From positions 139,225 to 203,224 of the forward strand of contig CBDCJQ010000002.1 in the NCBI GenBank assembly GCA_965217965.1: 64,000 nucleotides of DNA, given 5' to 3'. Position numbers and translations under genes: made by a program. Source of the stretch: Hanamia sp. (GTDB taxonomy: Bacteria > Bacteroidota > Bacteroidia > Chitinophagales > Chitinophagaceae). Shown piece after piece: positions 10,597 to 57,841 of this stretch. How positions within the stretch are numbered: position 1 is the first letter of the stretch; every line of letters starts with the position of its first letter. The notes under the pieces are model-generated. The model was not told where the DNA came from and did no database searches. It saw only the letters and a program-made list of their open reading frames with translations.

Positions 10597-10759
10597 TCTC
10601 ATTTCGTAGAGCAAATTCCCCGTGACATTGTTAGCGCTACTTAAATACATGAAGTATTTGCAGCCACGATGCGAACTTTTATAATAAATTCGGATTTGGC
10701 AAAGTTTTGAGTATCATTGTACATGTATTAATTTTTTTTTAACTTAAAAATCAAACATC

Positions 10760-33792: not shown

Positions 33793-33971
33793 ATATTTCA
33801 ATTCTGTTTAAAGCATTCATAAAAAAAGCCTATATAAATAATTCGTTGTGGAATTTATTCCTCATCACTTTACTATTAGAAGCTAAAAAGCCTTACAATG
33901 CTTACTGGTAGCGGCTTTACAAATAGGCATAAACTTTTCATAATAATTATTTCAACATACAAAATAATACT

Positions 33972-34748
33972 ATGCGGCCAATATGGACGGGTGCAATCGG
34001 TTTCGGGCTGGTGAACATCCCGGTAAAAATGTATAGTGCTACTCAATCAAGCAATCTCAATCTTGATATGCTGGATAAAAAGGATCATTCAAATATTAAG
34101 TACCAGCGCATCAATGAAAAGTCGGGAAAAGAAGTGGCGTGGGGAAGTATTGTAAAAGGCTACAAATTAGATGGTGAGTATGTAATATTAGATGACAAAG
34201 ACTTTGAAGCGGCAAGCGCTAAAAAAACCAAGACGATTGAAATTTCTGACTTTGTAAAAGAAGAAGAAATAAGCAGTCTTTATTATGAAACGCCCTATTA
34301 TCTTGAGCCGGATAAATCCGGCACGAGGCCTTATGAATTATTAAGACAGGCTTTATTAAAAACTAAAAAAGTAGGCGTAGCAAGCTTCGTAATGCGCAGC
34401 AAAGAAAGCCTTGCGATATTAAGACCCGATAACGATGTGATCGTTTTGAACCGTATAAGGTTTGAGGAAGAGATAAGAGCTACCGACGAGCTCACCCTTC
34501 CTAAAAATACAGATGTGAAACTCGCCGAATTAAAAATGGCCGTTTCACTTATTGATCAGCTCACAGCAAAATTTGATATTTCAAAATATAAAGACACTTA
34601 TAACGAGGAGCTATTAAAATTAATTAAAGCAAAGGCAGGTGGTAAGAAAATGAAAGTGCCTGAAATGAAAGTTGTTCACAGCAAAACAAAAGACTTGATG
34701 GAACAATTAAAAGCAAGCCTCGACATTAAACGTAAAAAAGCATCCTGA
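33972..34748 (+). CDS. ku: NHEJ Ku protein
   Basis: [37 protein letters not shown]. Confidence 0.97.
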
Positions 34749-35353
34749 TGGCCCTATCCCAATATAATAAAAAAAGAAATTTTCAAGAAACATCTGAACC
34801 TGCCGGCAAATTGAAAAAGTCGGAGGCAAAACTTTCGTTTGTAGTACAGCGGCATAAAGCCTCCCGCCTTCATTACGATTTCAGATTGGAAATGGATGGT
34901 GCATTGAAAAGCTGGGCAGTACCAAAAGGCCCTTCATTGAATCCAAAAGATAAGCGATTAGCAATGATGGTGGAGGATCATCCTTACGATTACAAAGATT
35001 TTGCAGGCATTATTCCTGAAGGAAATTATGGGGCTGGCATCGTGGAGATATGGGATAGTGGCACCTATACCGACATTGATAATTCAGACAAGAAAACGGC
35101 TGAAAAAAATTTAAAAGCCGGGTTGAAATCAGGTGATTTTAAATTTCAACTATTTGGCAAAAAGCTAAAAGGCGAATTTGTTTTGGTAAAATTAAAAAGC
35201 AAAGAAGACAATAGCTGGCTGCTGATAAAGCATAATGATAAATATGCTGTTGCCGAAGAATATAACAGTGAGGATGATACACCGAAATCATCGCCGATCA
35301 ATAAGTTTCTCGCCGAAAAGAAAAAGGCTTCGCCGAAAAAAAAAAGTACGTAG
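34748..35353 (+). CDS. ligD: LigD 3'-phosphoesterase domain (possibly joined to the next ORF by recoding)
   Basis: FVVQRHKASRLHYDFRLE, LKSWAVPKG, VEDHP, WLLIK; TGATG overlap with ku. Confidence 0.92.
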   Translation: MALSQYNKKRNFQETSEPAGKLKKSEAKLSFVVQRHKASRLHYDFRLEMDGALKSWAVPKGPSLNPKDKRLAMMVEDHPYDYKDFAGIIPEGNYGAGIVEIWDSGTYTDIDNSDKKTAEKNLKAGLKSGDFKFQLFGKKLKGEFVLVKLKSKEDNSWLLIKHNDKYAVAEEYNSEDDTPKSSPINKFLAEKKKASPKKKST

Positions 35354-35400
35354 CAACCTCCATAAAGAAAGGCAGCAAGCTTAATAGTTTTATTAAGCCG

Positions 35401-37281
35401 ATGTTGGCAAAGGAAACTGAAAAACCTTTCGATAGTAAGGATTGGCTCTTCGAAATAAAGTGGGATGGATACAGAGCGATCGCGGAAATAAATAATCAGC
35501 GTGTCTCTCTTTATTCCAGAAATGGGATCACTTTTGAATACACATATCCAATAGTGGTAGAGCAGCTAAAACTGATAAAAGAAAAAGCGGTTCTGGATGG
35601 TGAAGTGATCGTGCTGGATAATGAGGGCCGCCCCAGTTTCCAGCTGCTGCAACACTATTCTGAAAATACACACAGATCTATACAATATTATATTTTCGAT
35701 TTGATTGAACTAAACGGCCACGATACTACAGGGCTCACACTCCTCGACCGGAAAGAATTACTGCAACAAATAATCCCGGAAAATGAAGTGATCAAATACT
35801 CCGATCACATATTAGAAAATGGCAAATCATTTTTCCAGGTTTCCACCGAAAAGAATCTTGAGGGAATAATGGCAAAAAAAATTGATTCGAAATATTACAT
35901 TGGAAAACGCACAACGGAGTGGCTTAAAATAAAAAATCATAAAACACAGGAAGCCATCATAGCAGGATATACAGAACCGGGCGGTGCACGAAAATACTTC
36001 GGGGCTTTGATTCTTGGCACTATGATAAATGACGAGCTCACCTATATCGGCCATACAGGAACAGGTTTTGATCAAAAATTATTAAAAGAAATGTATGAAA
36101 TGCTGCAGCCACTTGTGCAGGAAGATTCTCCTTTCGAAGAAAAGATTAAGACAAACATGCCGGTAATATGGGTCAGGCCTGAATTAATTTGTGAAGTAAA
36201 ATATGCTGAGGTGACCTCTGATGGTAAATTGCGGCACCCGGTTTTCATGCATTTAAGAGAAGATAAAAATTTAAACGAAGTGACTATGGCAAGCACGAAA
36301 CCTGTAAAAAAAGCAGCTCAAAAAAAAGCTGCTCCGGAGAAGACTAAAGCAGAAAAAAAGAAGAAACAAAAGAAGGACAAAACCTTCATTTTTGGAAGCT
36401 ATAAAATACAAGTTAGCCATCCGGATAAAATATATTTTCCGGAGGATGAGGTAACAAAAGGCGATGTAATCGAGTACTACATTTCTATGGCTGATTATAT
36501 TCTTCCTTACCTGAAAGGCAGGCCTGAATCACTCCTCCGAAATCCAAATGGTATTCATGAGAAAGGTTTTTTTCACAAAGATGCAGGAGAGAATGCGCCC
36601 GGTTTCGTGACGCGGCAATTGGTATTCTCAGAGTCCAATAAAAAAAACATCGATTATATTATTTGTGATAATAAAGCGACACTTACTTATTTAAATAATC
36701 TCGGCTGCATAGAAATAAATCCCTGGCATTCTACAGTAAAAGATCTTGACAAGCCGGACTATCTTATTATTGATATCGACCCTTCTGATAAAAACACTTT
36801 CGAGCAGGTAATAGAAGCGGCGAATGTAATTAAACAAATACTCGACAAAGCAGGAGCGCCGGGTTTTTGTAAAACCTCGGGTGCCTCGGGTATGCACATA
36901 TATGTGCCTACTGGTAAAAAATATACTTATGAACAGGTAAAAGATTTTACCTACCTCATTTGCATTATTGCAAATAATCAAATGAAAAATTTCACTACAC
37001 TGGAGCGAAGCTTAACAAAGAGAAGCAATAAGCATATATACCTTGACTATTTGCAAAACCGGAAAGGACAAACCATCTCCTCGGTTTATAGCTTAAGGCC
37101 AAAAGCCGGCGCCACCGTATCCACGCCACTACTGTGGAGCGAAGTAAAAAGCGGGCTATCTCCCAAACAATTTACCATACATAATATTAAGGAAAGAGTA
37201 AAAAAAGCCGGAGACATTTTCAAAGGCGTGCTTGGAAAAGGAATTGACTTAAAAAAATGCCTGGAAAATTTAGAAAATTAA
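35401..37281 (+). CDS. ligD: LigD ATP-dependent ligase plus primase-polymerase domains
   Basis: EIKWDGYR (KxDG), EGIMAKK, LRHPVF, DIDP, KTSGASGMHIYVP, DYLQN; frame open from 35305 with FIKP upstream of the first ATG. Confidence 0.93.
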   Translation: MLAKETEKPFDSKDWLFEIKWDGYRAIAEINNQRVSLYSRNGITFEYTYPIVVEQLKLIKEKAVLDGEVIVLDNEGRPSFQLLQHYSENTHRSIQYYIFDLIELNGHDTTGLTLLDRKELLQQIIPENEVIKYSDHILENGKSFFQVSTEKNLEGIMAKKIDSKYYIGKRTTEWLKIKNHKTQEAIIAGYTEPGGARKYFGALILGTMINDELTYIGHTGTGFDQKLLKEMYEMLQPLVQEDSPFEEKIKTNMPVIWVRPELICEVKYAEVTSDGKLRHPVFMHLREDKNLNEVTMASTKPVKKAAQKKAAPEKTKAEKKKKQKKDKTFIFGSYKIQVSHPDKIYFPEDEVTKGDVIEYYISMADYILPYLKGRPESLLRNPNGIHEKGFFHKDAGENAPGFVTRQLVFSESNKKNIDYIICDNKATLTYLNNLGCIEINPWHSTVKDLDKPDYLIIDIDPSDKNTFEQVIEAANVIKQILDKAGAPGFCKTSGASGMHIYVPTGKKYTYEQVKDFTYLICIIANNQMKNFTTLERSLTKRSNKHIYLDYLQNRKGQTISSVYSLRPKAGATVSTPLLWSEVKSGLSPKQFTIHNIKERVKKAGDIFKGVLGKGIDLKKCLENLEN

Positions 37282-38437: not shown

Positions 38438-38823
38438 GATTTTTAAGTTTTAAAGTTGTTTTAATTATTAATAGTTCAGCTATTTACCTACAATATTCTG
38501 CCAATAACCTATACACTGCAAAAAAAAACGCAAAACCCACTATAGTCAATGGTTTTATCATACTGCCTGCTGTCACCAAATAGCAAAATTTAGTATTTTC
38601 TGAGTAATATTTTTCCCACTATGAGGAGTTTATTTTAAACATTTAAGCGTAGTGATTTTTTATTTCGGCCAAACCCAATTAGTAACCGATCACTTAATAT
38701 AATTTTATTCTGGCATAATCTTAAGTAGCTAAATGGCTAACGGCCAATAATTTTTGGTGAAAATTTTATTCAAAAATATGGTTGAACAAATTTTTGATAA
38801 ACTATTGTGTGCAAAATCATTTT

Positions 38824-47900: not shown

Positions 47901-48444
47901 TGAAATTGGAAAGCATCGGTATAATGCGTAGTTGTTTTTGTTTCATCAGCGCAAGCCCGGCGCTATCAATACTCGTTTGAAGACGATAGGTTAGCGTATC
48001 AATAAAAAACCATTCGGGAAATATAGTATTGAGCTTAGAAGCATATTTTTGCAGATCAGGGTAAGAGGTAGTACCTGTCCATGGCGTATAAAATGCTGCA
48101 CGTATCAAGGAAAGTGAATTAGCTTTGGAAGCCCCCTTCACTGTTGCGTTTTTTAGTGAATCTGTTTTTAGTTTTTTAAACAAAAAATCTTTAAATCCTT
48201 TGAAGCGTGTGTTTTGTGCGTTCTTTAAAACTAATGGATTAGATGGGTCCAACGTTGTTTTAAATTCTTTCGCCTTCGCCTCCATATTGGGTAAATTAGG
48301 CAGCGACCCACTGTACAAAGCAATACCCAACACCACAAAAAAAAAGACCCCAACTATTGCCAGGATGCGGGACGTCCACTGTACGCTTTTCCAACGGGTA
48401 GGCTTATTTGTTTGAAATATCTGGGAAGGTTTATCGTCCGTCAT
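44965..48444 (-). CDS. GH18 + polysaccharide deacetylase + GT2 fusion
   Basis: GINIDFE (GH18), LTFDDGP/GNHTFTH/LLHD (NodB), DDGSKD/DADT/AEDCD/QRFRW (processive GT2). Confidence 0.92.
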   Translation of the reverse strand: MTDDKPSQIFQTNKPTRWKSVQWTSRILAIVGVFFFVVLGIALYSGSLPNLPNMEAKAKEFKTTLDPSNPLVLKNAQNTRFKGFKDFLFKKLKTDSLKNATVKGASKANSLSLIRAAFYTPWTGTTSYPDLQKYASKLNTIFPEWFFIDTLTYRLQTSIDSAGLALMKQKQLRIIPMLSNFRSQAAGFDGKLLHKILSDSIIENHLIQQVTDTLSYYKLNGINIDFEELIEKTNGPLTVFQEKLYEALHAKGLLVTMDVEPKNNDYDYTKLSAYNDYIVLMAYDQYNNSTGPGPISAQKWIEDAVSWTAERIDPSKIILGLGSFGYDWANGKYDATDTYNDAINKAKSINANIIYDNDSYNLHFDYTSEEKDSSGNIDKTQHEIWFTDAATTFNILRLSDEFPTAGTALWRLGSEDQRMWTYYNRPLNNSSLQKTPFDFDLLKNISVIQNNVGFEGEGEVLDIIYSPQPGKINLEIDSSEQLIAEQHYAQLPSGYVIQKFAEDTVEGKGHKLILTFDDGPSAAFTPKILDILEREKVPATFFVVGIQAEQNIPILQRIYKDGFEIGNHTFTHHNIADMSMQRAALEMKLTRLLIESITGHSTILFRAPYNADSQPQTFEELAPIERSRSENYLTINESIDPNDWAPGVSADSIVQRVIRQEAEGNASIILLHDAGGETRQATVDALPQIIDYFKKRGFVFTTVADLMGKTKEEVMPRVASSRDRWTRKFNFFLAEAGYWSGQILFSLFLIGILLSVGRIILMAALASIQKNKEGKAAALQALPALLSGSKATWPLVSIIIPAYNEEVNAERTINSLLAQDYPQLEIIFVDDGSKDDTYKKTFSHFSSNPRVQVYTKTNGGKASALNFGIQKCSAGFVVCIDADTQLKTDAVTELMKKFDKENVAAVAGNVKVGNQVNMITRWQSIEYITSQNFDRRAFDLLNCITVIPGAIGAFKKDAILVSGGFTMDTLAEDCDLTMRIHRNGYEIRNCTNAISYTEAPETFRQFLKQRFRWSFGVMQCFWKHRDTVFNPRYKNFGMVAMPNILIYQMILPILAPLADLILVVSLIAASFGIIMASISHIIFYYIIFSFIDIAGAALAFAYEKENYMKLLWMIPQRLIYRQLMYYILIKSFNKAIKGEIQGWGALKRTGSVKDIVAAR

Positions 48445-54569: not shown

Positions 54570-55060
54570 TAAATCTTGAACAGCATGATCTGTTCATGTA
54601 ATTGTTTAAAATTTTTTCCTTTATTGGAAGGTATTGTGTTTAAATTAGGCAGCGTTGATTCCATAGATTTATAAGAGGAATACTTATCAGCAGTTATCTC
54701 AGCAGCATCACTTACATGCTCTTTAATTGCATACTTTAAAGTATCTGCCTGATAATCTTCTATTTGCTGCAGGTAAATCCTGCCTATTGTTTTTTCATCT
54801 ATTCTTTCCATCAGTATCATCGTCGCTTTTTTTCTTTGATAAACTGCGTCCCGGCTTGCCTTCTTCTTTGCCTCCCACCACAAACTGATCTACGTGAACC
54901 GCTGTGTCAATCTTTTTTTTTATCCGACTGCATACCTACCTGCGCCTTGCGTTTGAAGAGCCAGGCAGATTTCTGCTGAATACCTACTTCGTAGCCTAAT
55001 TCCACCGTTGACATGCCTTTCTTTTTAGCAGAAATACGGAACAGCAAATGGAATGCTGAG
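54570..55060 (-). mobile_element. IS1595-family transposase fragment (frameshifted, truncated at both ends)
   Basis: KKGMSTVELG..QKSAWLFKRK / VDQFVVGGKEEGKPGR / ITADKYSSY..KGKNFKQLHEQIM. Confidence 0.75.
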
Positions 55061-57722: not shown

Positions 57723-57841
57723 ATTAATACCATAACGGTATTAATAGTAGTGATAGCGCACGGCGTGGCATCTTAATAATTACCATTAGATAAAAATTCC
57801 GTGTGGGTCTACAATTTATAGGCAAAGTTTTTTTTTGGACA

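Follow-up and report, generated by a model that had tools for sequence, protein, structure and literature searches.

How does a bacterium obtain its end-joining ligase when the gene, as written in the genome, reaches a stop codon before the ligase begins? Bacterial non-homologous end joining (NHEJ) is described as the work of Ku and a single multi-domain protein, LigD. The window considered here, a stretch of 64,000 nucleotides (nt) from a Bacteroidota genome (Hanamia sp., assembly GCA_965217965.1, contig CBDCJQ010000002.1, positions 139,225 to 203,224), holds on its plus strand a ku-ligD operon with the full set of LigD modules, i.e. the 3'-phosphoesterase (PE), the ATP-dependent ligase with its adenylation and OB domains (LIG) and the primase-polymerase (POL), and with ku adjacent to them. 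The PE frame ends at a TAG codon (35351-35353), and the modules therefore do not form one open reading frame (ORF) as written. We consider it likely, from the comparison of orthologous genes, that slippage at a conserved run of adenines makes a PE-LIG-POL fusion alongside the PE protein. The preliminary description of this DNA had proposed recoding at a run of ten adenines (A10) that gives both a free PE and a full-length LigD, and the orthologues support this proposal.

The junction itself is as described before. The PE frame closes with TCG CCG AAA AAA AAA AGT ACG TAG, which includes the A10 run (Table 1), and the -1 frame, which reads VSRRKEKGFAEKKKYVATSIKKGSKLNSFIKPMLAK, runs on into the ligase (...EKKKYVATSIKKGSKLNSFIKPMLAK) with no ATG, GTG or TTG ahead of the ATG at 35401. 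Adding one A to the run produces an uninterrupted PE-LIG-POL ORF of 844 amino acids (aa), again as had been stated. Every junction of this type requires either one extra nucleotide or a -1 step of the ribosome. We propose that the genome sequence, decoded as written, would give the free 201-aa PE (about 23 kDa), as predicted when no slip occurs, and that a fraction of expression events would shift frame within the run and give the 844-aa PE-LIG-POL (about 96 kDa). The shift would most likely consist of RNA polymerase adding one A on the homopolymer, i.e. programmed transcriptional slippage; alternatively or additionally, the ribosome could slip by -1 on A_AAA_AAA, which is decoded by the genome's only tRNA-Lys, with anticodon UUU. 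The predicted junction peptide, SPKKKKYVATSIK, is identical under both mechanisms. Lineages in which the length of the run has changed carry it within a gene that is fused in frame, and there slippage would release free PE instead. Since the run is present in both the split and the fused states, either genomic state would yield both products, and the ratio of PE to PE-LIG-POL may matter for end joining.

The split gene is not a lone broken copy among plain fusions. A PE orthologue was found in 104 of the 127 species genomes of the genus Ginsengibacter (Chitinophagaceae), with an open frame of about 200-235 aa in nearly all of them. Together with the 80 best PE relatives from a collection of species-representative genomes, the approximately 100 junctions from the genus were deduplicated to 171. 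LIG-POL lies in the -1 frame in 98 of these, is fused to PE in frame in 35, lies in the +1 frame in 16 and in frame 0 behind a stop codon in 3; the remaining 19 are PE-only. A run of at least eight adenines is present inside the overlap of the two frames in 95 of the 98 split(-1) junctions (48 A10, 44 A9 and 3 A8), and it begins at codon position 1 in 75 of the 95. The split(-1) arrangement occurs in about 70 of the about 100 Ginsengibacter species loci; within the genus, about 73 split loci stand against 3 fused ones, and the length of the run is fixed inside subclades. A junction identical to that of the window, A10 followed by GTACGTAG, together with the KKKST-stop tail, recurs in at least 12 other species.

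Alignment of the orthologues, which had been suggested as a check on the window locus, thus reveals that about 70 species of the genus keep the split, the A9 or A10 run and the -1 relation of the frames, and that all three turn up again in Chryseobacterium, Epilithonimonas, Niabella, Parafilimonas and Flavobacterium humi. The carriers outside the genus were drawn from the best PE relatives and from an even draw of the phylum. Among them are cultured isolates that unrelated projects have sequenced, namely Chryseobacterium formosense DSM 17452, C. defluvii DSM 14219, C. rhizoplanae DSM 29371 and Epilithonimonas pallida DSM 18015, whose assemblies are independent, and C. aquaticum, C. herbae, C. 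gossypii, C. artocarpi and Flavobacterium humi; metagenome-assembled genomes (MAGs) of Niabella, Parafilimonas and Ilyomonas carry it too. Two of the junctions come from genomes flagged as unpublished (G023 and G060), and the conclusions are independent of both. Most Bacteroidota normally have a fused orthologue, 830-900 aa in length.

The loci with nine adenines narrow down the place where the frame could change. There, the first bases of the run form the TAA with which the -1 frame opens, and the overlap of the two frames amounts to merely 13-19 nt, so that any shift must fall inside the run. A second potential shift site, G_AAA_AAG at 35320-35326, had been pointed out upstream of the A10 in the window. 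It is indeed present and in phase; however, it is non-canonical, as the AAA in the P site would re-pair with GAA, and a shift site common to these loci must lie elsewhere, because the -1 frame is still closed at this position in the closest relatives and in all A9 loci; in these it opens only at the run, with overlaps of 13-19 nt. We have therefore rejected it in that role.

If the fusion is made, the region between the run and the first methionine of the ligase (the Met of the PMLA motif) must be read as protein. No ATG, GTG or TTG is found between the upstream stop in the LIG frame and this Met in 70 of the 95 run-bearing junctions, and no ATG in 85 of them; the orthologues do not share an independent, conserved start. 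In the 70 start-less junctions, not one of the 1,613 LIG-frame codons that separate run and Met is a stop, and the other two frames contain 135 in 1,574 and 142 in 1,550 (about 9%). The ratio of nonsynonymous to synonymous variation (pN/pS) in the nine codons before the Met of these loci is 0.33 in the LIG frame, as compared to 1.14 and 1.64 in the other frames and to 0.36 in the nine codons after the Met. The distance from run to Met takes 28 values between 26 and 130 nt with the frame kept in all cases, which implies many independent insertions and deletions, all frame-preserving. The entropy of the alignment sites has a three-base periodicity upstream of the Met, past the stop codon of PE, and the proline at position -1 is invariant while its codons are mixed (CCA 20, CCC 17, CCT 17, CCG 14). 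The peptide follows the motif [KR]K[LI]xx[FY]IKP-MLA, which is also found in the fused orthologues. The absence of stops, the low pN/pS, the periodicity and the mixed proline codons indicate that the start-less linker is translated and continuous with the run; judged by these signatures, it is under protein-level selection and read as part of the LIG frame. The preliminary description had taken the PMLA Met to be internal to the ligase domain. This has to be corrected in part, as the Met lies at the N-terminal edge, at position 2 of the Pfam adenylation model, and the alignment with the ligase structure 1VS0 starts from A-PMLA; on the other hand, the 9-14 residues that precede it are conserved and under purifying selection.

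The run as such also appears to be maintained. AAA makes up about 80% of the lysine codons in these genes, so that about 50% of KKK tripeptides would be expected to be written as A9; in the gene bodies, only 2 of 38 are. At the junction, a run of at least nine is present in 93 of the 98 split(-1) loci (95%) and 69% of the in-frame fusions, in none of the 19 stand-alone PE genes and in none of the 3 two-gene splits in frame 0. The stand-alone PE genes have similar lysine-rich tails with interrupting G's. The run also goes together with the lack of a start codon, since at least nine adenines are found in 88 of 92 splits without an upstream ATG and in 13 of 23 splits that have their own ATG (Fisher P ~1e-5, not corrected for phylogeny), typically 13 codons before PMLA (e.g. 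L005, L094 and L018). By these frequencies, the run is a selected element at the junction.

A further line of evidence comes from loci in which the length of the run differs. In a sister species (L087, genome G091), the allele has A11 followed by GTACATAAGC..., the in-frame counterpart of A10 followed by GTACGTAGC in the window; it encodes ...KKKKYISTSIKNGKKLGEFIQPMLA (...KKKKYISTSI...), which is exactly the fusion predicted for the window locus. L072 is another A11 fusion. In Paenimyroides ummariense (L155, A12) and in a Chryseobacterium MAG (L170, A14), which are sisters of A10 alleles, LIG is in the +1 frame, as it is in L083 (A11), and these expanded runs show that run length changes at the DNA level. 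A tree of 137 PE+LIG sequences calls for at least 12 changes between the fused and the split(-1) states, and 25 over all states (FastTree, with moderate support). Of the 35 in-frame fused genes, 24 have A9-A11 at the same position of the linker (e.g. L150, L156, L179, L194, L129, L134 and L077), and in almost every case examined the gain or loss of one A leads to a stop within 0-13 codons. Slippage in such genes would thus release a PE-only protein, a mirror image of the split layout. A pattern scan of metagenomes for run-length variants of the window junction returned 85 matches, one of which was a LigD junction (A10, split).

The form of the run bears on whether the polymerase or the ribosome would change the frame. 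The RNA:DNA hybrid in bacteria is 9-10 bp long and runs of nine A or T slip efficiently in vivo (PMC5009743), and homopolymers of eight or more are typical sites of transcriptional slippage (PMC3711429). The run is kept at 9-10, i.e. at the length of the hybrid, which favours slippage of RNA polymerase. For ribosomal frameshifting, the heptamer or A_AAA_AAG would suffice, and A_AAA_AAG almost never replaces the pure run; an in-phase A_AAA_AAG is carried by the A8 loci L018, L090 and L091. No stimulatory RNA structure is enriched in the 50 nt after the run (mean minimum free energy -4.6 kcal/mol, z -0.2, as compared to -7.3 kcal/mol and -0.16 in control windows within LIG), and the linkers vary widely in length and sequence among the orthologues. 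In favour of the ribosome, the window contains a -1 frameshift heptamer of the X_XXY_YYZ type in the phase of the zero frame, and ARAGORN predicts one tRNA-Lys (UUU) among 42 tRNAs in the genome; the sole tRNA-Lys(UUU) of E. coli makes lysine codons shift-prone (PMC5009743). Altogether, transcriptional slippage is somewhat more likely, and a ribosomal -1 slip on A_AAA_AAA, as well or instead, is possible.

The features of the locus are collected in Table 1. The TGA stop of ku overlaps the ATG of PE (TGATG), so that ku is translationally coupled to ligD. In LIG-POL, the Pfam matches are DNA_ligase_A_M (E 1.3e-34), DNA_ligase_A_C (1e-28) and LigD_Prim-Pol (3.1e-83), and comparison with the structure of the M. 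tuberculosis LigD ligase (PDB 1VS0) gives E 1.1e-47. A genome-wide search revealed no PE besides the ligD module. In a scan of the sigma-70 type, whose settings are not adapted to promoters of Bacteroidota, the best promoter-like site lay upstream of ku, at 33916-33944, and neither a promoter-like nor a terminator-like site was found at the PE/LIG junction.

Table 1. Coordinates of the ku-ligD operon and of the elements at its junction (positions in the window)
Feature	Position	Strand	Description
ku	33972..34748	+	258 aa; Pfam Ku, E 2.6e-50; sole Ku of the genome
PE module (LigD 3'-phosphoesterase), zero frame	34748..35353	+	201 aa, ending ...SPKKKST-TAG; Pfam LigD_N, E 1.5e-42
Overlap in which the frames of PE and LIG (-1) are both open	35305..35353	+	49 nt; includes G_AAA_AAG at 35320-35326
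A10 run, proposed slippage site	35336..35345	+	In-phase A_AAA_AAA at 35338-35344
Linker in the -1 frame (..YVATSIKKGSKLNSFIKP)	35346..35400	+	Without start codon; translated, as judged by conservation
LIG-POL	35401..37281	+	626 aa from the PMLA Met; ligase adenylation, OB and primase-polymerase domains

The translated linker and the selected run have to be weighed against explanations in which the genome is decoded without slippage. The main rival is phase variation at the level of DNA, where the run would change in replication, a subpopulation with A11 would be ON and make the fusion, and the A10 majority would be OFF, with no slippage of RNA polymerase or ribosome. Poly-A/T tracts are slippery for DNA polymerase too (PMC3711429), the run ranges from A8 to A14 between species, with the A11, A12 and A14 alleles mentioned above as sisters of A10, and the gene tree calls for repeated changes between fused and split states. 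An open, selected linker that lacks a start codon would be explained equally well. We nevertheless regard phase variation alone as unlikely, since the split state dominates in the genus (about 73 loci to 3), the run length is fixed in subclades such as that with A10 and GTACGTAG, and a rare ON fraction would hardly sustain the purifying selection observed on linker and domains. Moreover, transcription of a run this long should involve slippage in all cells in any case (PMC5009743), so that the two mechanisms are not exclusive and may coexist.

Two ordinary genes would be a simpler arrangement, with PE ending at the TAG, LIG-POL starting by re-initiation or coupling at the Met at 35401 or at a near-cognate codon just upstream, and the run being a lysine-rich linker in an AT-rich codon usage, where AAA is the prevalent lysine codon. 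PMLA is where the Pfam ligase model and also the 1VS0 structure start, a Shine-Dalgarno sequence is not required in Bacteroidota, and true splits are known within the genus (L005, L094) and elsewhere (L297, L301, L308), as are a stand-alone LIG-POL (L002) and stand-alone PE genes. However, the true splits have an ATG at least 13 codons before PMLA and lack the run, and the protein-level selection upstream of the Met in the 70 start-less loci, the stop-free linkers of up to 130 nt, the avoidance of A9 for KKK elsewhere and the absence of runs from the lysine-rich tails of stand-alone PE genes are all at odds with this explanation, which makes it quite improbable. The least probable explanation, to which we give very little weight, is an artefact or decay: a homopolymer miscalled in a three-contig, probably long-read assembly, or a recent frameshift that turned ligD into a pseudogene. 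Runs of ten A are well known for indels, both in sequencing and by mutation, but conservation between species and an intact LIG-POL contradict both variants: the same junction and tail recur in at least 12 other species, independent projects, some of them with short-read assemblies of isolates, have yielded about 90 junctions of this arrangement, and LIG-POL (at least 626 aa) is intact with 65-85% aa identity across the genus.

The remaining runs in the genome were considered as well. The ligD A10 is the sole A/T run of at least ten in the window. There are 71 such runs in the 6.25-Mb, three-contig genome, and the ligD A10 alone sits at a junction where a long ORF ends and another frame continues. 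As only 1 of 71 breaks a gene, an assembly-wide homopolymer error was rejected. The apparent breaks at A8 or A9 in the genome are mostly ordinary gene boundaries or multi-copy insertion sequence (IS) elements. Runs of nine A or T occur in the window also at 10732-10740, 38520-38528, 48337-48345, 54913-54921 and 57828-57836.

It must be noted that several points speak against a fusion made by slippage or limit the case for it. Kinship among the species means that our counts and P values overstate independence, and the two large clades Ginsengibacter and Chryseobacterium account for most of the -1 cases. In about ten loci whose runs measure 9-14, LIG occupies the +1 frame; these would need a different slip (a deletion or +2). 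A linker translated as part of a fusion fits RNA-level slippage and heritable switching of the run length in DNA alike. In a search of 5.8 billion predicted proteins, including those from assemblies of public sequencing runs, the best fused match reached no more than 74% identity across the junction and came from the A11 sister species. The genome also contains the second LIG-POL paralogue (L002) with its own start, so that the supply of a ligase-polymerase does not hinge strictly on the fusion. Finally, stand-alone PE and stand-alone LIG-POL genes occur naturally, which implies that a two-protein system can work.

The paralogue (L002, G000:C1:314948-316906) encodes 688 aa, is 46% identical and has its own ATG 33 codons before PMLA; it lacks a PE module, and no second Ku is present in the genome. 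It is adjoined by a divergently oriented ORF of 326 aa, whose N-terminal CNDRCGHC resembles, by eye, a radical-SAM cluster motif. The PE orthologue stands alone, without LIG-POL downstream and without a long A-run, in about 12 Ginsengibacter species (L023, L050, L051, L054, L058, L062, L066, L067, L070, L082, L097 and L099), and free PE is thus a natural form of the gene in the genus. In L070 and L082, the next gene begins with MAA(L/Q)(A/T)(K/E)KD...

The best precedents for the proposed decoding are found in dnaX. In Thermus thermophilus, tau is encoded in frame and gamma is made by transcriptional slippage on A9, and in Chlorobi dnaX consists of two ORFs with A10, where tau needs the slip (PMC5009743, PMC3711429). 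In the dnaX genes, as in ligD, a homopolymer of 9-10 A lies within a gene of DNA metabolism, the short and long products share the N-terminus, and no downstream stimulatory structure is needed. Both layouts exist among species, with the Thermus gene corresponding to the fused, run-bearing LigD and the Chlorobi gene to the window locus. On the other hand, dnaX encodes a clamp-loader subunit and LigD is an NHEJ ligase, for which slippage is predicted here from sequence, and the short product of LigD is a complete autonomous enzyme rather than a truncated form of the same protein. The -1 frameshifting of E. coli dnaX and of IS3/IS630-type elements on A_AAA_AAG resembles our case in its in-phase A-rich heptamer, its downstream ORF in the -1 frame and the single tRNA-Lys(UUU); IS630-family elements in the genome of the window are split in the same way. 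However, ligD lacks the signal of a downstream hairpin or pseudoknot, its run is held at nine or more although the heptamer would suffice, and stimulators of the Shine-Dalgarno type are not expected in Bacteroidota. In Buchnera and Blochmannia, transcriptional slippage still allows the expression of genes that a run of about A10 has broken (PMC5009743), but those are scattered, lineage-specific lesions in decaying endosymbionts, whereas in LigD a single site is kept in about 90 free-living species. This single conserved site, together with the avoidance of runs elsewhere in the gene, argues for use rather than tolerance. With LigD of the Pseudomonas type, the window locus shares the domain order and content PE-LIG-POL and the coupled ku immediately upstream; it differs in that the polypeptide is not in one frame, as PE has its own stop and the remainder has no start codon.

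The IS630-family elements of this genome are of two multi-copy types, in which an orfA with HTH_32/HTH_29 is followed by an orfB with DDE_3 in the -1 frame, joined at A8 or A9; copies lie on contig C2 at about 63666 on the reverse strand (with at least 3 copies elsewhere), at C2:968515 and at C2:1712261. The expression of these transposases looks dependent on frameshifting or slippage, and the splits hint that slippage on A-runs is used in this organism. Another observation concerns LigD of the Bacteroidota type, with 60-70% identity, on contigs or proteins labelled Akkermansia, Methylobacter, Syntrophothermus, Thermodesulfobacteriota, Burkholderiales and Methylococcales (L136, L140 and L147; P0008, P0017 and P0021). 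These probably reflect mis-binning of MAGs, gene transfer being less likely.

Searches of the full-text literature, of Antonov et al. 2013 with its supplements and of the NHEJ survey by Sharda et al. 2020 yielded no report of recoding in LigD, and the accessible part of the review by Atkins et al. 2016 has no mention of it; the Sharda et al. 2020 survey counts all NHEJ of Bacteroidetes as "conventional". Thus, programmed slippage on homopolymers is a known process, and we found no prior description of it for the LigD family, to which the present comparison would extend it. It is tempting to go further and, tentatively, to consider LigD as a recoded family like dnaX, in which a slippery linker run of A9-A10 would be selected across Bacteroidota and would act both by transcript slippage in every cell and by an occasional heritable change of its length. 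Both products would then always be made, and a lineage-specific ratio between them might tune end-healing against sealing in NHEJ.

If slippage at the run does make the fusion, many soil and freshwater Bacteroidota would obtain the full LigD solely in this way, with free PE as the default product. The many ligD entries with a "frameshifted" or "split" appearance would then represent working, recoded genes, and surveys of the organisms that carry NHEJ would change accordingly. A chromosomal gene of DNA repair would join the short list of non-mobile genes with programmed slippage. As for the evolution of the family, the site shows a slippery run that has been retained while the frame state in the genome flipped repeatedly. 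The run would also offer a simple handle on the solo role of the PE module and on whether the stoichiometry of end-healing and ligation matters.

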